From the sequence record MT446422.1: a DNA stretch of 64,000 nucleotides; one strand, given 5' to 3'. Below the pieces are notes generated by a model that saw only the letters and a program-made list of their open reading frames with translations, did not search any database and had not been told where the DNA came from. The stretch comes from Escherichia virus TH57. The position numbers were made by a program, and so were the translations under genes. Each line of letters starts with the position of its first letter. Positions within the stretch are counted from its first letter, which is position 1. This document shows, piece after piece, positions 2,933 through 47,748 of the stretch.

Positions 2933-3399
2933 ATTACGATAGAATATATCCTTGCGATTTTATTAATGGTCCTGGCTGCAGGGCCGTTCTTTTCGTTACA
3001 GGTTGTTTGCATAAATGCGAAGGGTGTTATAATAAATCAACATGGAATGCTAGAAATGGTGTTCCATTCACTGGTGAAACACTAGAACAATTAATTGAAT
3101 GTTTGAATAATGATTATATAGAAGGATTGACTATAACTGGAGGAGACCCTCTCTATCCCGATAACCGAGATGTTATTCACTCTGTGGTTCAAACTATTAA
3201 AAATCTTTATCCCAATAAAAGCATTTGGTTGTGGACCGGATATAAGTTTGAAGATATTAAACAACTAGAAATGCTTAAATATGTTGATGTTATTATTGAT
3301 GGGAAGTATGAGAAAAATCTTCCGACCAAAAAACTGTGGCGAGGGTCAGATAATCAGCGACTTTGGTCAAATACCGATGGGGTGTGGAAACATGATTAA
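2929..3399 (+). CDS. nrdG: anaerobic RNR activating protein (radical SAM)
   Basis: 156 aa; CxxxCxxC cluster motif (CLHKCEGC); start overlaps nrdD stop. Confidence 0.9.
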   Translation: MNYDRIYPCDFINGPGCRAVLFVTGCLHKCEGCYNKSTWNARNGVPFTGETLEQLIECLNNDYIEGLTITGGDPLYPDNRDVIHSVVQTIKNLYPNKSIWLWTGYKFEDIKQLEMLKYVDVIIDGKYEKNLPTKKLWRGSDNQRLWSNTDGVWKHD

Positions 3400-3513
3400 A
3401 TTTAATTATATTATGGACACTATAAATGATATGATTTTTCATTTTGGTCCAGAATTTTATTCGCAGTATAGTTTAGTGTTTATCAATGCTTGGTTAATCA
3501 ATTAAGGGTAAAT

Positions 3514-3729
3514 ATGAATAAATTTCGTAATGCTACAGCAGATATTCTGGCAAACATAACGCTTGTGTTGTTCATCGTTTGTCTGCTTATTCTGGCTATC
3601 CCGTTTGGTTTACTGTTTGTTATCATCGGTTGGTTAAGCACCAATCCTGGCCTAGAAAGCTCTGAATTCAACAAACGAATCCAGGCTATTCATAGTACCA
3701 TTGCAAAAATGATGAAGGTGAAAGAATGA
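3514..3729 (+). CDS. small membrane protein
   Basis: Hydrophobic core LVLFIVCLLILAIPFGLLFVIIGWL; start chosen at internal ATG 3514. Confidence 0.35.
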   Translation: MNKFRNATADILANITLVLFIVCLLILAIPFGLLFVIIGWLSTNPGLESSEFNKRIQAIHSTIAKMMKVKE

Positions 3730-4025
3730 AACGTTTTGAAGAATATGTAGCTACTAATTGGACCGCGTGGGACAAATTCGGTGATGAATGGTACTTCCAC
3801 GACTGTGACCTGGACCCGAAATTCTTTGCTGATAAAGAAGAAGACCTTAAAGATATCTATGCTCTATCTGAGATTCATGGAATCAAACCGACGGTTTATT
3901 TCTCTTTCAATGACACAGGTTTCCTTATTCAGGTTTATGTCCCGTATGCAACCGCCAGCGATGAAGAAGTTATTAAAACCTGGAACTACCAAGGAGTGAT
4001 TTCCTGTGGGCCAAAACTCGACTAA
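3726..4025 (+). CDS. hypothetical protein (99 aa)
   Basis: ORF with start overlapping upstream stop. Confidence 0.4.
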   Translation: MKRFEEYVATNWTAWDKFGDEWYFHDCDLDPKFFADKEEDLKDIYALSEIHGIKPTVYFSFNDTGFLIQVYVPYATASDEEVIKTWNYQGVISCGPKLD

Positions 4026-4323
4026 GATTGAAATTTATGGTATCCCCGAAGAAGTCGGTCGATGCCCTGGTTGTATGCACGTAAGGAGCCTTCTGGGCTC
4101 CTTAAACCTTCCTTATACATTCTATTCAGTCCTTAACAAACAAGGCTCTGAAATCGCTTATGACAGGCCTTTAATCATGTCTTTGGCTAAGCGTGCTGGA
4201 TATCCTACCCTTAACATTCGTTACCCAGTGATTTTTGTCAATGATGAAAAAATGACAAATATTCCTGCCTTTAAAACAAAACTGATATCCCTGGGGTACG
4301 ACCAGGACTTAATTGAAGATTAA
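4006..4323 (+). CDS. glutaredoxin/thioredoxin-like redox protein
   Basis: CPGC active-site-like motif after a beta-strand (IEIYGIPEEVGRCPGC); start codon uncertain (GTG at 4006). Confidence 0.45.
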   Translation: MGQNSTKIEIYGIPEEVGRCPGCMHVRSLLGSLNLPYTFYSVLNKQGSEIAYDRPLIMSLAKRAGYPTLNIRYPVIFVNDEKMTNIPAFKTKLISLGYDQDLIED

Positions 4324-4346
4324 AAAGGGGTGTACAAGCCCCTTTG
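4324..4346 (+). terminator. hairpin with T-run
   Basis: AAAGGGG tgtacaa GCCCCTTT. Confidence 0.4.
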
Positions 4347-4359
4347 AACGGTGTATCAT
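4330..4359 (+). promoter_or_regulatory. early-type promoter cassette (GTGTACA, 18 nt, TATCAT) plus conserved leader
   Basis: -35-like GTGTACA inside GGGG..CCCC hairpin; downstream leader CCATCAACTACTGATGAGGA then ATG 4391. Confidence 0.45.
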
Positions 4360-4390
4360 TATCCCATCAACTACTGATGAGGAAAACAAA

Positions 4391-4573
4391 ATGGTTATTG
4401 AAGATAAAGAAATTAAACTTGACCATTATTATTCTGTAAATGGTTATCCTATACAAGTAACCAAAGTGACTGACCAAGATGTATGGTATCGTCCTTTGAA
4501 ATGGCCAGACGCTCCGTTGATGGTGTGCGACCGTAGCTTGTTCAATACAGTTGCGAAAGGACCTAAATTATGA
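4391..4573 (+). CDS. hypothetical protein (60 aa)
   Basis: ATG 4391 directly after conserved leader ATCAACTACTGATGAGGA downstream of promoter cassette. Confidence 0.35.
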   Translation: MVIEDKEIKLDHYYSVNGYPIQVTKVTDQDVWYRPLKWPDAPLMVCDRSLFNTVAKGPKL

Positions 4574-4824
4574 GCCTGAAATTACACTCAATGAAAAATA
4601 TCATTACCCTTAATCTGGATGATGAGCGCCTGATTTTTCTCACCGTCACTGATAAGAATATTGAAATTGCAAATGGTCCTAAGACTTATTGTTGCCCAGT
4701 GAAGAATTGGAAACATGTAACCTTTTTGACCCTGGGTGAACGCCTGAAAGACCTTAAGTTGGATTTGGATGTCAAAGATATCCAGTACATTAAAAATCTT
4801 ATTGGATACAAACTGTTGAGGTAA
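4570..4824 (+). CDS. hypothetical protein (84 aa)
   Basis: ORF with stop/start overlap. Confidence 0.4.
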   Translation: MSLKLHSMKNIITLNLDDERLIFLTVTDKNIEIANGPKTYCCPVKNWKHVTFLTLGERLKDLKLDLDVKDIQYIKNLIGYKLLR

Positions 4825-4826
4825 CT

Positions 4827-5120
4827 ATGGGTAAAACTATCCGTCGTAAAGAATTGTCTGTAAAAGATTTTTATTATTCCGGACGTCGTAAAGCACCAGA
4901 CGGTGTAAGTCAGGAACAAGTTGAAGAAAATATTTTCCGTTCAGACAAATGGAAGCGTATGCGTGGCGTTGATTCAGAAGTCAAGAATGAAATGAATCGT
5001 CAACTGCGCAAAGAAGTTCGCCAGTTGAAAAAAGATGTATACGTTGAGGATGATTTTGATTATAATACTTCTCACCGTGTTGCAAAGCGTAAATCAAATG
5101 AATGTTATCGTTACAGTTGA
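4827..5120 (+). CDS. hypothetical basic protein (97 aa)
   Basis: ORF rich in Lys/Arg. Confidence 0.4.
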   Translation: MGKTIRRKELSVKDFYYSGRRKAPDGVSQEQVEENIFRSDKWKRMRGVDSEVKNEMNRQLRKEVRQLKKDVYVEDDFDYNTSHRVAKRKSNECYRYS

Positions 5121-5259
5121 GGAAAATATGAATATCAAACGTATGCTTTTTAAACAAGGGTTATACACTTTAAATTCTGCTCCAAAAGGCGATACAACCA
5201 AGTGGTCAGTAAATGACTGGATTGAATTTATTGATGAAAACGGTAACTGGAAAATTTAA

Positions 5260-5457
5260 ATGAACCCTGAATCTAAATTATCACAGCGAATTGCTGAAGC
5301 TCGTCGCCAGTTTTTTGAAAATATGATAGCTCAAGGTATCGATGACGAAGTTTTTCTAAACTGGTTTTGGAATCACAAGTATTCAAGTTGTTCAGGAGCG
5401 ATATTCATATCAGCCGCAATGATGTATGAAGGCTGGAAAGCGGCTAAAGCGCAATAA
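5260..5457 (+). CDS. hypothetical protein (65 aa)
   Basis: ORF on early strand. Confidence 0.35.
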   Translation: MNPESKLSQRIAEARRQFFENMIAQGIDDEVFLNWFWNHKYSSCSGAIFISAAMMYEGWKAAKAQ

Positions 5458-5463
5458 AAACCA

Positions 5464-5486
5464 ACGGGGTCATGGTATAATGACCC
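5464..5486 (+). promoter_or_regulatory. stem-loop with embedded TATAAT (-10) upstream of ORF 5530
   Basis: GGGTCAT..TATAAT..ATGACCC inverted repeat. Confidence 0.35.
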
Positions 5487-5529
5487 TAGGATAATAAAAT
5501 TTTAATTTAATGAGACTGAGGAATATATC

Positions 5530-5856
5530 ATGACTGCATCTATCACTAACATCATCGCTAATTTCGCATTTACTAAAGTTAACACTCTGATGAAATCTGG
5601 TTTTGTTACTCCTGAGATTCTGGACCAGTGGGAAGGCGATGTACAGAAACTGATTATTGCAGAAGGTCAGACAATGGGTAAAGCGCGTATTCGTGAAAGC
5701 CTTGTCCAGTATATCCTGAATGAATTTGATGTAGTAGCGTTTGGTTTACCGCTTCTGCGTGAAAACAAAGAAGTTTCTGATAAAGCTATCAAGCGTATGA
5801 AGTCCCAACGCAAGAAGGGGTTTGTTGACCTGAAAATTGTTAAGGGTGCAAAATGA
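5530..5856 (+). CDS. hypothetical protein (108 aa)
   Basis: ORF preceded by stem-loop promoter element and GAGGAA RBS. Confidence 0.45.
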   Translation: MTASITNIIANFAFTKVNTLMKSGFVTPEILDQWEGDVQKLIIAEGQTMGKARIRESLVQYILNEFDVVAFGLPLLRENKEVSDKAIKRMKSQRKKGFVDLKIVKGAK

Positions 5857-6116
5857 TGTGCCCTGCTATTGAATTACCTGAAGGTGTTGCGGTAATAGTA
5901 TCCTACAAACATACGTATGCTAATGGAATTCGCCGAGCTCATAAAATTAGTCACGGTTACTATTTACAAAGGACTTTAAATTATTTCATTTCAATGGGAT
6001 ATGAATTCAGAATCTATCCTATGTGTACTAAAACCAAGTACACTAAAATCGATGCTTGGGAAGCTTGGGCGGAAGGCATGACATTAGACGAATTCCTGGA
6101 CTACTTAAATGATTAA
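5853..6116 (+). CDS. hypothetical protein (87 aa)
   Basis: ORF with stop/start overlap. Confidence 0.4.
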   Translation: MMCPAIELPEGVAVIVSYKHTYANGIRRAHKISHGYYLQRTLNYFISMGYEFRIYPMCTKTKYTKIDAWEAWAEGMTLDEFLDYLND

Positions 6117-6375
6117 AATAAAACTCTCTAATTACGATAAAAACCTGGAAATGATTACTATGAAAGAAGAACTCCTGAATGATGTCCGCTTGACGGGTTA
6201 TGCAGTTCAATTTAATGATGTTGGTGTCCTCCAGATTGAAGGCGACCACTTTATTATTGAATATGAATTCCATCAGTATTGGTTGTATGCCAAAGATGAA
6301 GTAGGTGGGATTGATTATGTTGACCAGTTTGATAAGCTTGACGATGTTTTAGAAGCTGCCCAGATGGTTTACTGA
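6109..6375 (+). CDS. hypothetical protein (88 aa or shorter)
   Basis: ORF; true start may be a downstream ATG. Confidence 0.35.
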   Translation: MIKIKLSNYDKNLEMITMKEELLNDVRLTGYAVQFNDVGVLQIEGDHFIIEYEFHQYWLYAKDEVGGIDYVDQFDKLDDVLEAAQMVY

Positions 6376-6641
6376 TGCACATCAATCATACAATGATATC
6401 CGTCCAGGACCTGGGAACGTTTTGGGTGGATGAATTTATGAAAATAACATTCTTCCCGCATGCAGAAGGGTATGGCTCTTGGGAGTCTCATATCGGTATG
6501 CTGAATGAAGGACAATACCGCAACGAGCATGACCGTTTGATGGAATTCATTAGCGATGCCGAGGTTATTCCTTATATTGACATCCATGAATTTAAGGCAA
6601 TTATGGAGAAGGTCTTTCAGGCTTACTGTTTACTTCGCTAA
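6375..6641 (+). CDS. hypothetical protein (88 aa)
   Basis: ORF with stop/start overlap. Confidence 0.4.
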   Translation: MHINHTMISVQDLGTFWVDEFMKITFFPHAEGYGSWESHIGMLNEGQYRNEHDRLMEFISDAEVIPYIDIHEFKAIMEKVFQAYCLLR

Positions 6642-6666
6642 TGCTTTGTATTAAGGATGATATAAT
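6642..6666 (+). promoter_or_regulatory. candidate middle promoter (MotA box plus -10) for gene 55
   Basis: aaTGCTTTg then 12 nt then TATAAT. Confidence 0.4.
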
Positions 6667-6689
6667 ATTCATATACTAAGTGAGGCGAT

Positions 6690-7247
6690 ATGAACGAAAT
6701 TAAATTAACCAAGAATAACTATGTAAATAATAAAGAGCTTTTGAAAGCTATTTCGGAGTGGAAACAGAAGCTGAATGCGAACACCGACCCGAACAAAATT
6801 ATTCGCCAGAACGATGTTATTGGTCTGGCGATTATGCTTATAGCCGAAGGTCTTAGCAAACGTTTCAACTTCTCCGGATATACCCAATCCTGGAAGCAAG
6901 AAATGATAGCAGACGGAATTGAGGCCGCAATAAAAGGTCTTCATAACTTCGACGAAACAAAATACGATAATCCACATGCTTACATAACAATGGCTTGCTT
7001 CAATGCTTTCGTTCAGCGTATCAAAAAAGAACGTAAAGAAATGGCAAAGAAATATAGCTACTTCGTCCATAACGTATATGATTCACGTGACGACGATATG
7101 GTGGCTCTGGCTGATGAAACATTTATCCAGGACATCTACGACAAAATGACACAGTACGAATCCTCTTTAGTTAAAGCGCCAGGGTCTGATAAGAGCGCCA
7201 AAGATAAAGAAGGTGATTTGGATTTTTTATATGGAACATCAATTTGA
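6690..7247 (+). CDS. 55: late-transcription sigma factor gp55
   Basis: 185 aa, the T4 gp55 size; sequence matches recalled T4 gp55 along its length. Confidence 0.9.
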
Positions 7248-7464
7248 TATTACCGATTTTTTAGATAAAATCGAGGAAGACTTTACTGCGCTCCCATATT
7301 TCATTAAACTTTATCTGCGAGACATAAAAGGTCTTCCAATTGATATCGACCCTTTAAACGTCCGGAATCTGGAATTTACTTCACCGGATAATAACGTTGA
7401 TTACCGTTATCATGTGGATAATGCTAATCTATATTTTACAATTGAGTTAACTCCCAAGGATTAA
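7231..7464 (+). CDS. hypothetical protein (77 aa)
   Basis: ORF overlapping the end of gene 55. Confidence 0.35.
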
Positions 7465-7465
7465 T

Positions 7466-7777
7466 ATGCAAGCTCCAGATATTTCTCAACTGACCGATAA
7501 GCAGATTGAAGAAGCACAGGAACGTCTCGAAGAAGCGAACGCACTCGAAGCGCAGAGTCAAGCAGCAAAGATTCTGAAAAAGAATGCTCGTGAAATTGCA
7601 CGACTGAATAAGCATGCTCAAGGGGCAGTGCTGGAAAACAATTTTGAAGCATACAAATATGCTTTAGTTAAACTGCGTGGAATTTACCGCCAACCAGTTA
7701 CGGAAGACCTGATTAAGTTGATGTGGGAAACTACTCGCAAACAAATTTGGGAAATCGTAAATGGCATTAGTAAATAA
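7466..7777 (+). CDS. hypothetical protein (103 aa)
   Basis: ORF, helical/charged composition. Confidence 0.45.
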   Translation: MQAPDISQLTDKQIEEAQERLEEANALEAQSQAAKILKKNAREIARLNKHAQGAVLENNFEAYKYALVKLRGIYRQPVTEDLIKLMWETTRKQIWEIVNGISK

Positions 7778-7964
7778 ACCTTTTAAACGGCTTCTTGTTG
7801 GAGCCGCTTTCAGACTTCGCTCATACGGTAATATCTGTATCAAGCAGACCGAAACCGAATATAAAATGGTTGGTCAGTATTCTGATGGTATTTTTCAGAT
7901 TGAGCCTGTGGCCAAGGTTTGGGTGGATTCACACCAACTTAAGAAATGGTGGCAACGATGGTAG
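7761..7964 (+). CDS. hypothetical protein (67 aa)
   Basis: ORF only. Confidence 0.3.
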   Translation: MALVNKPFKRLLVGAAFRLRSYGNICIKQTETEYKMVGQYSDGIFQIEPVAKVWVDSHQLKKWWQRW

Positions 7965-8054
7965 GATTTTATGAAAGCGGATGTAACGAAGACGAACATC
8001 CGGATTTTTAAGCTTATGAACGACGAATAAGAAAAAGTTTAAGAGGTTTTATGA

Positions 8055-8228
8055 ATGACGAATTCGACGGATTTTGATAAGATTAAATCTGGCAAAAATG
8101 AGATGATACTTCAATTTGAAGCCGCTCGTATTAAAGCAGAAAATGAAGGCACTATTACCCATAAGAAAATCAAGTTCAAGTCTAATCGCGAACCTCTGTA
8201 TGGTGTATTAATTGGAAAGGAAGCCTAG
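8055..8228 (+). CDS. hypothetical protein (57 aa)
   Basis: ATG 8055 preceded by AAGAGG RBS; below the ORF-track size cut-off. Confidence 0.3.
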   Translation: MTNSTDFDKIKSGKNEMILQFEAARIKAENEGTITHKKIKFKSNREPLYGVLIGKEA

Positions 8229-8240
8229 TGCTTCCTTTTT
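8219..8240 (+). terminator. rho-independent terminator
   Basis: GGAAGC ctagt GCTTCC followed by TTTTT. Confidence 0.5.
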
Positions 8241-8262
8241 GCTTTATATTCGGGATGATAAA
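8240..8262 (+). promoter_or_regulatory. candidate middle promoter
   Basis: TGCTTTA then about 11 nt then GATAAA; weak -10. Confidence 0.3.
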
Positions 8263-8284
8263 ATGAACCAACTGAGGAGAACAT

Positions 8285-8428
8285 ATGGAATTATTTTTAG
8301 GATATGTTGTGTTATTCATGGCATTCTACACATTCACACGAGCTTGTTGGATAGGATTCTTTTCTACTCCTGACGGGTTCATTTCAATAATTTTATTTTG
8401 CACTGCGATAACGGCGCTTGGCTTATGA
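8285..8428 (+). CDS. small membrane protein (47 aa)
   Basis: GAGGAG RBS 6 nt upstream; hydrophobic; stop overlaps gene 47 start. Confidence 0.3.
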   Translation: MELFLGYVVLFMAFYTFTRACWIGFFSTPDGFISIILFCTAITALGL

Positions 8429-19009: not shown

Positions 19010-20188
19010 ATGTCTATTGCAGATTTGAAATCCCGTTTGATTAAAGCTTCTACATCCAAAATGACTGCGACTCTTACTAAGTCCAAGTTTTTTAATGATA
19101 AAGATGTAGTTCGTACAAAAATCCCGATGCTGAACATTGCAATCAGCGGTGCACTAGATGGTGGTATGCAGTCAGGTTTGACTATTTTTGCTGGTCCGTC
19201 AAAACACTTTAAATCCAATATGGGTTTAACGATGGTCTCTGCATATATGAACAAATACCCCGAAGCAATCTGTTTGTTCTATGATTCAGAATTTGGTATC
19301 ACAGAAGCCTATCTGCGTGCAATGAAAGTAGACCCGGAGCGTGTTATCCACACACCAATCCAGTCGGTTGAACAATTGAAAGTTGATATGGTTAACCAGC
19401 TTGAAGCAATTGAGCGTGGTGAAAAAGTCATTATCTTTATTGACTCAATCGGTAACATGGCGTCAAAAAAAGAAACAGAAGATGCGATGAACGAAAAAGT
19501 CGTTGGCGATATGACTCGTGCTAAATCCCTGAAATCTCTGTTCCGTATTGTTACCCCATATTTTAGTATCAAGGATATTCCTTGTGTCGCGGTTAACCAT
19601 ACAATCGAGACGATTGAGATGTATAGCAAAACCGTTATGACCGGTGGTACAGGTGTTATGTATTCTGCGGACACCGTATTCATTATCGGCAAACGCCAGA
19701 TTAAAGAAACTGGTAAAGAACTTGAAGGTTTCCAATTTGTTCTGAATGCCGAAAAATCTCGTATGGTCAAAGAGAAAAGTAAATTCTTCATTGATGTAAA
19801 ATTCGATGGTGGTATTGACCCGTATTCTGGCCTGCTTGATATGGCAATGGAAATCGGATTTGTAGTGAAACCGAAAGTTGGTTGGTATAACCGTGAATAT
19901 CTTGATGTTGAGACCGGTGAAATGGTCCGCGAAGAAAAATCATGGCGTGCAAAAGATACTAACTGTACTGAATTCTGGGGCCCGTTGTTTAAGCACGAAC
20001 CTTTCCGTGACGCAATCAAACGCCATTACCAACTGGGTGCAATCGATAGCAATGCTGTTGTTGATGCCGAAGTTGATGCGCTTATTGCCTCCAAGGTTGA
20101 AAAATACTCTGCCCCTGAAGGTAAGGCAAAACCATCTGCGGCAGATATCGAAAACGATTTAGATATGATGGAAGACCTTGATGAATGA
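19010..20188 (+). CDS. uvsX: RecA-like recombinase UvsX
   Basis: 392 aa; Walker A GPSKHFKS; matches recalled T4 UvsX. Confidence 0.95.
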   Translation: MSIADLKSRLIKASTSKMTATLTKSKFFNDKDVVRTKIPMLNIAISGALDGGMQSGLTIFAGPSKHFKSNMGLTMVSAYMNKYPEAICLFYDSEFGITEAYLRAMKVDPERVIHTPIQSVEQLKVDMVNQLEAIERGEKVIIFIDSIGNMASKKETEDAMNEKVVGDMTRAKSLKSLFRIVTPYFSIKDIPCVAVNHTIETIEMYSKTVMTGGTGVMYSADTVFIIGKRQIKETGKELEGFQFVLNAEKSRMVKEKSKFFIDVKFDGGIDPYSGLLDMAMEIGFVVKPKVGWYNREYLDVETGEMVREEKSWRAKDTNCTEFWGPLFKHEPFRDAIKRHYQLGAIDSNAVVDAEVDALIASKVEKYSAPEGKAKPSAADIENDLDMMEDLDE

Positions 20189-22338: not shown

Positions 22339-22548
22339 TATAAATTAGAGAACGTAGTGTTTATTGGTTGGTTTGAAAATGGTAATATGTTTACCAAAGA
22401 AACTGCACTAGATGTTAGCGACCAAAATATGATTGAATGGGTCACAGTGCAGTATGCAGAAGTGAATAATGCGCTGGTGAAAGCCTTTGTTAATGACAAT
22501 AAAGTTTTTGAATATGATTATCGTATCCACTTATCTGAGGAAATCTAA
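22336..22548 (+). CDS. hypothetical protein (70 aa), paralog of 22549-22890
   Basis: Shares NALVKAFVNDNK motif with neighbour (NALVEAFVDDK); identical TGAGGAAATCTAAATG junction at both starts. Confidence 0.4.
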   Translation: MYKLENVVFIGWFENGNMFTKETALDVSDQNMIEWVTVQYAEVNNALVKAFVNDNKVFEYDYRIHLSEEI

Positions 22549-22890
22549 ATGGCTTTTAATCCAGAAGACCGCGTAAAAGTAACAATCAAAGTGAGTGCTG
22601 TTGGTGTACCATCTTTTGAACGTTCTAGCATGTTCCACCCAGCAGGTATTCACTGGTATGTCCAGAAGACTGCTGATAACTATAATGCACTGGTTGAAGC
22701 TTTTGTTGATGACAAGCTAATTCATAAAGTAGACATGCGTAAGGGTACTGCATTGCGTAATCTGATTTTGACCGTTGAAGCTCAACTGGTAAATGAAGAA
22801 ATCTGCCTTACTGATATTGAAGCAGCTCTTCATATTGCGCGTGCTGAATATTACAACTTGACTGGTTTTTCAGTTGAAGGCGAAAAATAA
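22549..22890 (+). CDS. hypothetical protein (113 aa)
   Basis: ORF; paralogous segment to 22336-22548. Confidence 0.45.
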   Translation: MAFNPEDRVKVTIKVSAVGVPSFERSSMFHPAGIHWYVQKTADNYNALVEAFVDDKLIHKVDMRKGTALRNLILTVEAQLVNEEICLTDIEAALHIARAEYYNLTGFSVEGEK

Positions 22891-26066: not shown

Positions 26067-26585
26067 ATGGCTCATTTTAATGAATGTTCACAACTGATTG
26101 CTGGTGTTGACAAAGCTGAAGAAGCTTATGACAATGCAATTATCGAAGGCACTGACCCGCTGCAGATTATGCTTGATATGCAGAAATCATTGCAGGTCCG
26201 TTTGGCTACTGAAAAACCAGAATACAACTCACATCCAGACGAATTGGCTACCGCCGGCGATGTTGTTGCATGGCTTCGTAACCAGAAAGATTATGTTGAT
26301 GATGAATTCCGTGAACTTCTAACTTCTCTCGGTGGTATGTCTAATGGCGAGAAAGCTGCATCTAGTGTATGGAAGCCTTGGAAAGCCCAACATGCTGAAT
26401 TCCGTAATCGTCGTATTGATGAGTTGTCTCCTGAAGACCAGCTCGAAATTAAATTTGAGATGATTGACATCCTGCACTTTGTTCTGAACATGTTCCATGG
26501 TCTTGGCCTGTCGGCAGAAGAAATCTTTAAATTGTATTACCTGAAAAATGCTGAAAACTTTGCTCGTCAAGACCGAGGTTATTAA
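26067..26585 (+). CDS. 56: gp56-like dCTP/dUTP pyrophosphatase (MazG-like all-alpha NTP pyrophosphatase)
   Basis: 172 aa from ATG 26067; acidic metal-binding helices (DDEFRELL, EIKFEMIDILHF); position between 61 and soc as in T4. Confidence 0.6.
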   Translation: MAHFNECSQLIAGVDKAEEAYDNAIIEGTDPLQIMLDMQKSLQVRLATEKPEYNSHPDELATAGDVVAWLRNQKDYVDDEFRELLTSLGGMSNGEKAASSVWKPWKAQHAEFRNRRIDELSPEDQLEIKFEMIDILHFVLNMFHGLGLSAEEIFKLYYLKNAENFARQDRGY

Positions 26586-42815: not shown

Positions 42816-43392
42816 AACATGGGAGCATCTGAAAAAGATGCCCTCCTTTCTTTATACAAAGGAAGACTTAACACCTGAATCCCTACAAAAGATTGTAGAC
42901 ACGGCCAGGTATTCATTGCGTAAAGACCCAGGTCAAGACCGTGAGCAAGTCATGCAAAGATGTATGGTGGCTACAATGGCAGAACAAGCTATTGCTAAAT
43001 GGACCTCCGGCTTTTTATGCGGCGGTGATGAAGATTACGATAATCCTTATTCCTTTGCATTTGATGTAGTTTCGAAGGAAGGGGTAAGAATCGAAGTCAA
43101 GACCCACCAGTCTGGTTCCAAATGGATATCCGTGCATACTGGTAGTCAGGGCGATTATCCACATGGTTACGGGATTAATCTTGGTCCTTTTATGCAACAC
43201 AAGCTTGCTGACCTTATGATTATGTTTAATGTAAAAGAGACTATCAAAGGTTATAGATTTAAACCAAAATTCCTTGCTGGGCCTGGGGCTTTTGTTCCTG
43301 AGTCCGGTCTTGTGCAGAAGTCACAAGGGGATGGCTGGTACCTCCGTTCTTGTTCAGAAGAAAAATTCCCCTATCACCGGTTTACAAGCTGA
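42799..43392 (+). CDS. hypothetical protein (197 aa), possible PD-(D/E)xK nuclease at the denB position
   Basis: FDVV...RIEVKT resembles a D...ExK nuclease motif; occupies the post-rIIB slot where T4 has denB; speculative. Confidence 0.4.
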   Translation: MIQKSKTWEHLKKMPSFLYTKEDLTPESLQKIVDTARYSLRKDPGQDREQVMQRCMVATMAEQAIAKWTSGFLCGGDEDYDNPYSFAFDVVSKEGVRIEVKTHQSGSKWISVHTGSQGDYPHGYGINLGPFMQHKLADLMIMFNVKETIKGYRFKPKFLAGPGAFVPESGLVQKSQGDGWYLRSCSEEKFPYHRFTS

Positions 43393-44312: not shown

Positions 44313-44341
44313 GTGTACATCTCCGGTGGTTGTAGTATAAT
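44313..44341 (+). promoter_or_regulatory. early-type promoter cassette (GTGTAC, 17 nt, TATAAT)
   Basis: Leader GAACCTATCAACTACTGGAGA then ATG. Confidence 0.5.
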
Positions 44342-45300: not shown

Positions 45301-45329
45301 TGTACAAACTCATGGGGTCAGAGTATAAT
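45300..45329 (+). promoter_or_regulatory. early-type promoter cassette (GTGTACA, 18 nt, TATAAT) with stem-loop, upstream of ndd
   Basis: TGGGGTC..TATAAT..GACCCCA; nearly identical to cassette at 34822. Confidence 0.5.
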
Positions 45330-45373: not shown

Positions 45374-45823
45374 ATGACTACTTACATGACCCGTCGTGAC
45401 GTACTGAATGCTGGCGCTACCACTGTTGCTCACATCCATAATGGCAATTATGTTGTAGGGCGTCCAACTAAAGAAGCTATCACCCAACCAGGTTTTTATT
45501 TCGTGGTTAAAGGTGAAGGCGAATCACGTATTGTTGCTGCACGTTTTTACGTTGGTAACCAACGTTCACAACAAGGGTTTGACACTGTATTAAGTCACAT
45601 CCGCAAACAGCGTTCACAACTGTCGCGCACAATGGCGAACAATGGTGTTATCTATGAAGTCCTGTTTGTTCCAGTTTCTAAAATGAAACCTTTGACAACT
45701 GGTTATGGTAAAGGTCAAATTGCGATGGCGTTCACACGCTCACATAGTTCTGATTGTCAGACCCTTTCAGAAATGAATCGCATGCTTGCTGATAACTTTA
45801 AATTCATTTTGCAGAGCTATTAA
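45374..45823 (+). CDS. ndd: nucleoid disruption protein Ndd
   Basis: 149 aa; matches recalled T4 Ndd ([30 protein letters not shown]); canonical position upstream of stp/ac/52. Confidence 0.8.
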
Positions 45824-45824
45824 T

Positions 45825-45905
45825 ATGAGTAATTTCCATAATGAACATGTGATGCAATGGCATCGTCATAATCTGAAATTAACCGGCGTCTTTGGGCGCC
45901 CTTGA
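45825..45905 (+). CDS. stp: Stp peptide (26 aa; activator of host PrrC anticodon nuclease in T4)
   Basis: Peptide [26 protein letters not shown] closely matches recalled T4 Stp; immediately after ndd. Confidence 0.75.
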
Positions 45906-45912
45906 GGAAAAT

Positions 45913-46068
45913 ATGAATAAATTTGTTTATAGTGTAGCTTTTTTCTGTTGGTCATTTGTATTTGTTGGAACATTATTAACTGGAGAAACTTCAGTATTTT
46001 CACAGGCGATTGCTCAAGGTACCGTAGCGGTTTTATCACTATTTAAATTATTGGATAAAAATGATTAA
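45913..46068 (+). CDS. ac: small membrane protein (51 aa), ac position
   Basis: ATG with GAGGAAAA RBS; hydrophobic; between stp and 52 as T4 ac; by position and size. Confidence 0.45.
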   Translation: MNKFVYSVAFFCWSFVFVGTLLTGETSVFSQAIAQGTVAVLSLFKLLDKND

Positions 46069-46201
46069 GAAAATCTTGGGCTACTCATTAGCCCTTGCTA
46101 CCTTATTGGTGGCGCTGTATTATGGAGTTGTATTTGCATTAGTGCAGGTTGTGCTTTTTATTTCTGATGCTATAATGGCAGTACATTCGTTAATCTGGTA
46201 A
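46061..46201 (+). CDS. small membrane protein (46 aa)
   Basis: ATG overlapping upstream gene end; hydrophobic. Confidence 0.3.
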   Translation: MIKKILGYSLALATLLVALYYGVVFALVQVVLFISDAIMAVHSLIW

Positions 46202-46209
46202 GGTGATAT

Positions 46210-47589
46210 ATGTCTGACGTTTTAAGTATGATGTCCAAACAGTTCAGTGATTCCATGGGGTCCCTTAACCCACGCAGTCTAAAAGACATTATTGATGTGG
46301 AAGCATTGTCATATGCTATCTACACTGTGGAAGGTCGTGCCATCCCAAACATGATTGATGGTTTTAAACCAGTTCACAGATTTGTTATGGCGAGAGCATT
46401 AGACCTGGCTCGTGGCGATAAGAATAAATTCCATAAGGTTGCCTCCATTGCAGGTGGCGTAGCTGATTATGGTTATCACCATGGCGAAGCATCAGCGGAA
46501 GAAGCAACTTCTGGTCTGGTCGCAACATATAAAAATGAATACCCCATGTTTGATGGGCAAGGCAACTTTGGTTCCAGAATGGTGCCAGAAGCATCATCAG
46601 CTCGTTATGTATTCGCAAGGGTTTCAAAGAACTTTTATAACTTGTTTAAGGATACAGAATATGCTCCGGTCCATCCTGATGAAGAACATAAGCCTCCTGC
46701 TTTTTATCTTCCTGTTATTCCTACTGTATTACTTAACGCCACTTCTGGGATTGCTGTTGGCTTCGCTACTGATATTCTTCCTCATTCGTTCCAGGACGTC
46801 AAGGAAGCTGTTAAAGCTATCGTGGAAGGTCGTGAGCCGGTTGCTCCGAAAGTAAAATATCCAGAATTCCGTGGTGAAGTTGTTGAGCTGGAAGAGCCTG
46901 GTAAGTATGAGCTTCATGGCACGTACAAAATGACTTCCAGGACTCAAATGGAAATTACTGAAATCCCGGTCCAATGGAACCTGGAAAAGTATACAAGTAA
47001 AATCCTGGACCCACTGGAAGAGAAAGGTTTTATCACCTGGAAAGATAACTGTGGCGAGCATGGTTTTGGGTTTAAGATTAAATTCCGTAAGGAATACAAG
47101 CTGGATGGCACTGAAGAAGAAAATCATGAGAAAATCATGAAAGACTTTGGTCTGATTGAGAAGCTCTCCCAGAACTTAACTGTACTTAATCACAAAGGCA
47201 AATTGGCTGAATACACCAACACGCTTGACCTGATTCGCGATTTCGTTGATGTCCGTAAGACTTATGTCCAAGTGCGAATTGACAGTAAGATTAAAGAAAC
47301 TGAAGCCGCGTTTAAACTGGCCCGAGCAAAAGTCTTCTTTATTAAAGAAGTGATTGATGGTAAGGTTGTTATCCAGGGGAAACCTCGTAAGAAGTTGATT
47401 GAGGAGCTCCAGGCGAGTGAAATATATGGCGATTATGCAGAGAAGTTAGTGGCGATGAACATCTACCATATGACCTCTGATGAAGCCAAGAAGCTTGCAG
47501 ACGAAGCAAAGGCTAAGAAAGCCGAGCATGAGTACTGGAAGACAACTGATGTTAAAACTGAATACCTTAATGATTTGGAGGCTCTATGA
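46210..47589 (+). CDS. 52: DNA topoisomerase II medium subunit gp52 (GyrA-like)
   Basis: 459 aa; GyrA-type breakage-reunion N-terminal region. Confidence 0.92.
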   Translation: MSDVLSMMSKQFSDSMGSLNPRSLKDIIDVEALSYAIYTVEGRAIPNMIDGFKPVHRFVMARALDLARGDKNKFHKVASIAGGVADYGYHHGEASAEEATSGLVATYKNEYPMFDGQGNFGSRMVPEASSARYVFARVSKNFYNLFKDTEYAPVHPDEEHKPPAFYLPVIPTVLLNATSGIAVGFATDILPHSFQDVKEAVKAIVEGREPVAPKVKYPEFRGEVVELEEPGKYELHGTYKMTSRTQMEITEIPVQWNLEKYTSKILDPLEEKGFITWKDNCGEHGFGFKIKFRKEYKLDGTEEENHEKIMKDFGLIEKLSQNLTVLNHKGKLAEYTNTLDLIRDFVDVRKTYVQVRIDSKIKETEAAFKLARAKVFFIKEVIDGKVVIQGKPRKKLIEELQASEIYGDYAEKLVAMNIYHMTSDEAKKLADEAKAKKAEHEYWKTTDVKTEYLNDLEAL

Positions 47590-47684
47590 GTTTTGGAGTT
47601 GAGTTTGCATTGCTTTGTATTTTCGCGGCAATCGCGGGTGTGATTGTTGGTATGTTTATTGGTAATAAGATAGATAAAGACTAG
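47586..47684 (+). CDS. small membrane peptide (32 aa)
   Basis: ATG overlaps gp52 stop (ATGA); followed by terminator. Confidence 0.3.
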   Translation: MSFGVEFALLCIFAAIAGVIVGMFIGNKIDKD

Positions 47685-47706
47685 GGCCCTTCGGGGTCCT
47701 TTTTTA
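47684..47706 (+). terminator. rho-independent terminator after gene 52 region
   Basis: GGGCCC ttcg GGGTCC (imperfect) followed by TTTTTT. Confidence 0.5.
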
Positions 47707-47718
47707 TTTTAAAAAGTA

Positions 47719-47748
47719 GTGTACAAGTCCCTTGACCCGATGCATAAT
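47719..47748 (+). promoter_or_regulatory. early-type promoter cassette (GTGTACA, 18 nt, CATAAT)
   Basis: Follows terminator; leader GATTCCATACTGAGTTA; upstream of ORF 47798 and motA. Confidence 0.5.

Follow-up and report, generated by a model that had tools for sequence, protein, structure and literature searches.

A Stp-family peptide with a variant central segment in a Gaprivervirus coliphage and its probable T4-like role against type IC restriction

Bacteriophage T4 encodes Stp, a peptide that is both necessary and sufficient for activating a latent anticodon nuclease and that relieves restriction by the type IC enzymes EcoprrI and EcoR124I but not by type IA enzymes (PMC3014915). Its target is the EcoprrI Hsd complex rather than free PrrC, and the relief extends to restriction by EcoprrI and EcoR124I but not to modification (PMC3014915, PMC1484252, PMC12707154). 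Once activated, PrrC cleaves tRNA-Lys 5′ of the wobble base, and the damage is repaired by Pnk and RNA ligase 1 (PMC3014915, PMC1484252). According to a review from 2025, the way in which Stp inhibits the enzyme is not known (PMC12707154). The N-terminal 18 residues of T4 Stp are critical, with loss-of-function suppressors clustering at residues 4–14, and they are almost absolutely conserved among eight T4 relatives; loss of the eight C-terminal codons lowers activity only moderately (PMC3014915). Outside the T-even phages, the literature notes Stp-like peptides in TLS and Stevie only, which are T1-like phages that also carry a polynucleotide kinase (PMC4319613). A preliminary description of the locus studied here had stated that Stp inhibits EcoprrI and thereby frees the PrrC tRNA-Lys nuclease, and in this it agrees with the published work (PMC3014915, PMC1484252).

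We analyzed a 64-kb stretch of the Escherichia virus TH57 genome (MT446422.1), hereafter the window. Sequence and translation place an open reading frame on the plus strand at 45825–45905 (ATG 45825–45827, 26 codons, TGA 45903–45905), encoding a 26-aa peptide with the N-terminus MSNFHNEH. When aligned with T4 Stp (NP_049878.1; read from NC_000866), 20 of the 26 residues are identical and the differences are F12W, Y13H, N15H, T19L, K20T, and Q26P. The peptide matches PF08133, the “Anticodon nuclease activator family,” at 55.3 bits (cut-off 25; E = 4.4e-15) over residues 1–25 of the 26-position profile, and PHROG 6763, “activator of host PrrC lysyl-tRNA endonuclease,” with E = 2e-19; NCBIfam was without any model for it. 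A tblastn search of the window with T4 Stp hit a single place (E = 7.6e-11, 80% identity over 25 residues), and no second stp copy was found within the window. These scores are far beyond chance. Its 26 aa and its start just ahead of S-N-F-H-N-E-H are also as expected for the family (about 25–35 aa, starting at this motif or shortly before it). Every sequence criterion that could be applied places the peptide in the Stp family. The preliminary description had claimed a 26-aa Stp ortholog and proposed alignment with T4 Stp as a check; that alignment, PF08133, and PHROG 6763 all bear the claim out.

The surroundings are also those of T4, with the gene order ndd-stp-ac-52.1-52 on one strand. The ndd gene (nucleoid disruption protein) lies at 45374..45823 (PF06591, E = 3.7e-69; 61% identity to T4 Ndd) and ac (acridine resistance; a small membrane protein of 51 aa) at 45913..46068 (41% identity to T4 Ac, E = 1.3e-7; PHROG 2501, E = 2.2e-21), so the earlier placement of the peptide between these two genes was correct. 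They are followed by 52.1, encoding a 46-aa predicted membrane protein, at 46061..46201 (85% identity to T4 gp52.1; PF24129, E = 2.9e-20), and by gene 52 (topoisomerase II medium subunit) at 46210..47589 (70% identity to T4 gp52 over 441 aa), the last large gene in the co-oriented block. Because the TAA stop of ndd (45821–45823) is separated from the stp ATG by only one base, translational coupling of ndd and stp is likely. A weak Shine-Dalgarno-like AGAG at 45813..45816 (+), 8 nt 5′ of the ATG and within the end of ndd, may act in ribosome binding for stp, and the GAGGA ribosome-binding site of ac (45904–45908, +) overlaps the stp stop codon. A program-made list of open reading frames ran the stp frame back to a TTG at 45786; because the part 5′ of the ATG lies inside the end of ndd and its in-frame sequence is not conserved among other phages, we take the ATG as the start.

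Just 5′ of ndd, a consensus scan identified a promoter-like TGTACA-17-TATAAT at 45301..45329 (+; 10 of 12 positions matching), which is a candidate early promoter for ndd-stp-ac-52.1-52, and after gene 52 and a 32-aa ORF the same kind of scan identified a terminator-like GC-rich hairpin with a T run at 47683..47700 (+), a candidate end of the transcription unit. Promoter-like sequences consisting of TGTACA followed 16–17 nt on by TATAAT or CATAAT were seen ahead of gene blocks at 44314–44341, 45301–45329, and 47720–47748 (all +), all of them consensus matches only and in a number not above shuffle expectation. Neither tRNA genes nor Rfam families were found anywhere in the window, so no reading of the locus as an RNA element arises.

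The closest record to the window is Escherichia virus TH54, which a 24-kb piece of the window matches at 97.3% identity across 96% of the piece; other top matches are 94–95% identical. The TH54 and VR25 records are classified as Gaprivervirus, and close matches at the stp region include VR7, VR20, VR26, and SP18. Judging by these matches, the window phage is a Gaprivervirus, a T4-like coliphage. The identical peptide is present in 39 phage-collection records, including TH54, VR7, VR20, VR25, VR26, SP18, and the Dhakaviruses JS98 and IME281, and in RefSeq it is named “activator of host PrrC lysyl-tRNA endonuclease” in VR25 (YP_009210023.1) and JS98 (NC_010105). The gene, the family, and the exact allele are thus already public under the same functional name, and nothing here is new in kind. 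Many GenBank genomes with the identical 81-nt ORF have no feature there or only the neighboring ndd, an omission that is usual for genes of such small size.

The ac slot is a swapped cassette (45917–46060 in the window versus 2593–2747 in the VR25 locus), with VR7, VR20, and VR25 sharing an unrelated 55-aa membrane ORF; between the window and this VR-type slot, nucleotide similarity ends just past the stp stop and returns at the start of 52.1. JS98 and IME281 carry, ∼220 nt downstream of their QWHRH stp and behind a 52.1 fragment to which it is fused, a second stp remnant of T4 type (3944–3810 on the minus strand of the JS98 locus piece; 6461–6532 in that of IME281) that is not preceded by any in-frame ATG, GTG, or TTG. 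This remnant looks like a recombination scar of allele or cassette exchange.

We compared six copies encoding the identical peptide (VR25, three further Gaprivervirus loci, and the Dhakaviruses JS98 and IME281) with the window and found 3–6 synonymous codon differences and no non-synonymous ones. Because relatives differ in this manner with no amino acid change, the peptide is under purifying selection. The copy in Raoultella phage RP180, a Kagunavirus and an unrelated siphovirus, has 24 of 25 shared residues as in T4, with several codons synonymously different. These comparisons bear directly on whether the ORF is real, since an ORF this short, left unannotated in many GenBank records and preceded by only a weak Shine-Dalgarno-like sequence, might be a chance or untranslated ORF or a decaying relic. 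However, the E-values range from 1e-11 to 1e-19, the start and stop positions are conserved, the ORF closely abuts ndd as in T4, and a genuine relic looks different, the second JS98 copy having lost its start. We rejected both a chance ORF and a decaying relic on the PF08133 score, the synonymous-only differences, and the contrast with the JS98 relic, and regard the probability of either as negligible.

The central segment of the peptide reads QWHRH whereas that of T4 Stp reads QFYRN (F12W, Y13H, and N15H), and the preliminary description was right that the two differ. It had added that the segment may alter specificity. Because F12W, Y13H, and N15H all fall within the critical N-terminal 18 residues, this was a reasonable question, and of residues 4–14, 9 of 11 are as in T4, with F12W and Y13H falling inside the interval. 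Penner et al. are said to have listed inactivating Stp substitutions in a mutational study of 1995. We gathered natural variants by tblastn on the phage collection and by a degenerate DNA pattern on IMG/VR, and aligned 12 distinct Stp-like peptides from Tequatrovirus, Dhakavirus, Gaprivervirus, Kagunavirus, three Drexlerviridae genera, Skatevirus, and an unclassified Salmonella siphovirus, all 12 of which match PF08133. Residues H5, N6, H8, M10, and K18 are invariant in this alignment and S2, N3, E7, and Q11 nearly so, and the window peptide has them all; variation is found at positions 12 (F/W), 13 (Y/H/W), 14 (R/S/W), and 15 (N/H/R/Q). W12, H13, and H15 each occur in other family members: “QWHR” is found in Skatevirus INT55, “RWHW” in Webervirus, and “RH” at positions 14–15 in Henuseptimavirus N5822 and Veterinaerplatzvirus. 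QWHRH is a common natural allele assembled from residue states common in the family. The simplest reading is that it is functionally equivalent to QFYRN of T4, which we consider most likely. A helical-wheel argument, in which positions 12, 15, and 19 would lie on the F4/H8 side if the peptide were helical, was dropped because the invariant residues are spread around the whole wheel.

The same substitutions could instead mean that W12, H13, and H15 (and L19 and T20) retune a true Stp, either toward inhibiting another subset of type I enzymes or, with anti-restriction preserved, toward weaker (or stronger) triggering of PrrC than by T4 Stp. Besides the location of the changes in the functionally critical N-terminal 18 residues, this would fit the circulation of QFYRN and QWHRH in related genera, with Dhakavirus having either (QL01 and IME341 versus JS98 and IME281), and the T4-type remnant beside the QWHRH copy in JS98 and IME281, which is the pattern expected from allele replacement. 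Gaprivervirus phages are also without the T4 hydroxymethylcytosine pathway genes, so their exposure to restriction may differ. However, the substitutions are conservative (aromatic to aromatic or His) and sit at family-variable positions while the invariant residues are retained, and activation of ACNase depends for the most part on the same residues as inhibition of EcoprrI (PMC3014915), which makes the two activities hard to separate. We consider such a shift in specificity unlikely, and it is doubtful to the same degree that QWHRH differs functionally from QFYRN in any way, potency included, a difference that would be of moderate interest if true. An extended form, in which QWHRH would be a second Stp specificity class kept beside QFYRN by an arms race between phages and type IC/PrrC systems, with recombination of the ndd-stp-ac-52.1 cassette swapping the forms, strikes us as equally improbable. 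Were it true, Stp in Gaprivervirus, which is without the hydroxymethylcytosine and glucosylation genes, might be a front-line anti-restriction factor and not a relic.

Stp-family peptides are present in many siphoviruses, including Kagunavirus, several Drexlerviridae genera, and Skatevirus, and tblastn with Stp matched 171 Klebsiella-phage and 133 Salmonella-phage records. Numbered within their own locus pieces, the siphovirus genes lie at 2001–2078 in RP180, 2001–2096 in N5822, 1974–2081 in PhiKpNIH-10, 2501–2581 in KFSST1, 2483–2575 in T145P1, and 301–384 in INT55 and seszw. The siphovirus forms (Henuseptimavirus N5822, Webervirus PhiKpNIH-10, Veterinaerplatzvirus T145P1, Kagunavirus RP180, and the Skatevirus phages INT55 and seszw) have the core S-N-x-H-N-E-H-[VI]-M-[QR]-[FW]-[YHW] in common with the window peptide but differ from it in their divergent C-terminal halves, in N-terminal extensions in some cases, and in a context without ndd or ac. 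A polynucleotide kinase is encoded ∼500 bp downstream of the stp-like gene in N5822, and a Lar-like restriction-alleviation gene lies near that of KFSST1. PHROG 28068 (“unknown function”), to which residues 2–18 of the window peptide match, probably represents the Stp family as it occurs in siphoviruses.

This distribution bears on whether the Gaprivervirus peptide has some other host or phage target, its similarity to Stp reflecting shared ancestry only. The mechanism of T4 Stp is without structural definition (PMC12707154), and the DNA of T4-like virions is usually modified, so that a benefit from inhibiting type I enzymes is not obvious (PMC3014915). However, the same core is strongly conserved in Straboviridae, Drexlerviridae, Kagunavirus, and Skatevirus, which points to a single conserved target. 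Stp is also present in siphoviruses whose DNA is unmodified or no more than methylated, sometimes beside a pnk or Lar-like gene, and this fits an anti-restriction role. We thus regard a different target as very unlikely.

The window contains nothing homologous to T4 gene 42 (dCMP hydroxymethylase), beta-gt, alpha-gt, or Dam, yet it retains the gp56 dCTPase (26067–26582) and denB (42823–43344); the slots lacking the T4 modification genes are 18268–19015 (imm-uvsX) and 7233–8424 (gene 55-gene 47). VR25 has alc and denA, and its 1–75 kb, 105–145 kb, and 148–171 kb stretches contained no gene 42. The lack of hydroxymethylation genes in Gaprivervirus has been flagged already, with the suggestion of a non-canonical base of unsolved kind (PMC8056088, PMC12115623). 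If the virion DNA is without glucosyl-hydroxymethylation, type I restriction may, speculatively, matter more to this phage than to T4. An ORF in the T4 b-gt/42 slot (18394–18924, +; 176 aa) was considered as the missing base-modification enzyme but is not an obvious one, as it has a lipoprotein-type signal (…AVMLLSGC…) and no Pfam match, matches PHROG 1754 (unknown function), and looks like a lipoprotein instead. Elsewhere in the window, the adjacent ORFs 22345–22524 and 22591–22740 (+) show 57% and 34% identity, respectively, to T4 Dmd, which counters the toxins RnlA and LsoA as their antitoxin; tandem dmd paralogues at 22345–22740 are thereby suggested.

From the presence of Stp, the preliminary description had reasoned that the phage probably encodes tRNA repair elsewhere, and had proposed a search for pseT and rnlA. 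Within the 64-kb window, tblastn with T4 PseT, RnlA, and RnlB returned chance-level matches only. Judged by synteny, the window begins at about nrdD/gene 49 and extends via rIIA/rIIB to the tail-fiber genes, far from the pseT-rnlA region, so the absence of these genes from it is expected. Both genes are present in the closest relatives with an identical Stp: VR25 encodes pseT, rnlA, and rnlB, and TH54 encodes a full-length PseT that is 78% identical to that of T4 and an RnlA that is 51% identical to that of T4 and 92% identical to that of VR25. RnlA is at least 91% identical to the VR25 protein in all close relatives listed. The prediction thus holds for the lineage, but the “therefore” that derived it from Stp is weak: PseT-like genes occur in about 2,260 phage records and RnlA-like genes in about 1,820, well beyond the carriers of Stp, so Stp is not what predicts them.

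The other prediction made from the peptide was an interplay with a host Prr-type anticodon nuclease, which is conditional on a prr-positive host. We back-translated a published PrrC peptide, KYGDSNKSFSY (PMC1950546), and scanned it against one genome per species. In an Enterobacter locus the genes stand in the canonical order hsdM-hsdS-prrC-hsdR (prrC 3265–4455 and hsdR 4421–7567 in locus piece L076), and the 396-aa PrrC encoded there matches the PADLOC PrrC model with E = 1.8e-147. Of 5,426 complete E. coli genomes searched with this Enterobacter prrC as the query, only 6 (∼0.1%) had a full-length prrC, four times on the chromosome and twice on a plasmid (93 kb and 116 kb), and each copy adjoins an hsdR. 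When the search was made more sensitive, 14 further genomes came up, in which a diverged relative matches about half of the query and bears no annotation other than AAA ATPase. The prr-linked kind of hsdR, which was taken as type IC from the locus organization described in the literature, was found in 305 E. coli genomes (∼5.6% of complete genomes), 284 of them at ≥80% coverage. The PrrC sensor is thus outnumbered about fifty to one by potential targets of anti-restriction. Because prrC is found in so few genomes, the Prr part of the prediction seldom applies, and the 6 genomes with prrC as against 305 with the prr-linked hsdR suggest that relief of type IC restriction, rather than interplay with Prr, is the likelier everyday role of the peptide.

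Taken together, we think it quite probable that this is the stp gene of a Gaprivervirus, encoding a T4-like anti-restriction peptide and PrrC trigger in which QWHRH is most likely equivalent to the T4 segment. From its homology to T4 Stp, the 26-residue peptide would be made early and would bind host type IC restriction-modification complexes of the EcoprrI and EcoR124I kind, blocking DNA cleavage. In the rare hosts that have PrrC docked on a complex of this kind, such binding would also unmask PrrC, which would then cut tRNA-Lys, and PseT (polynucleotide kinase/phosphatase) and RnlA (RNA ligase 1), presumably encoded elsewhere in the genome, would repair it. The sequences themselves establish the identity of the peptide, its place in the family, the conserved gene order, the purifying selection, and the occurrence of the repair genes in the closest relatives; binding to the Hsd complex, inhibition of restriction, and activation of PrrC are here carried over from the work on T4 Stp. 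Little is at stake, as the gene is a known one, and the practical value is modest: it lies in the unannotated 81-nt ORFs and in the QWHRH allele, a natural variant useful for mapping the contacts of Stp with type IC enzymes. For reasoning about host range in phage therapy, the relevant host factor would be type IC restriction (hsdR in ∼5.6% of genomes versus prrC in ∼0.1%).

Among known systems, T4 Stp has the same length of 26 aa and the same slot between ndd and ac, and residues 1–11, R14, N16–K18, and G21–R25 are identical; the two loci differ in that T4 ndd and stp share one base whereas the stp ATG of the window lies one base past the ndd stop. VR25 and JS98 are closer still, with an identical peptide, the same neighbors on the ndd side, and codon differences that are synonymous only, but VR25 has its unrelated 55-aa membrane ORF in the slot where the window has a T4-type Ac. 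A further parallel is with T7 Ocr and PARIS, and with anti-restriction proteins and Ronin, in which sensing of a phage restriction inhibitor sets a toxic effector free (PMC12409349; bioRxiv 2023.04.06.535777). The proteins and sensors of PARIS and Ronin are unrelated to those of Stp, and the resemblance is thus one of functional analogy and not of homology.
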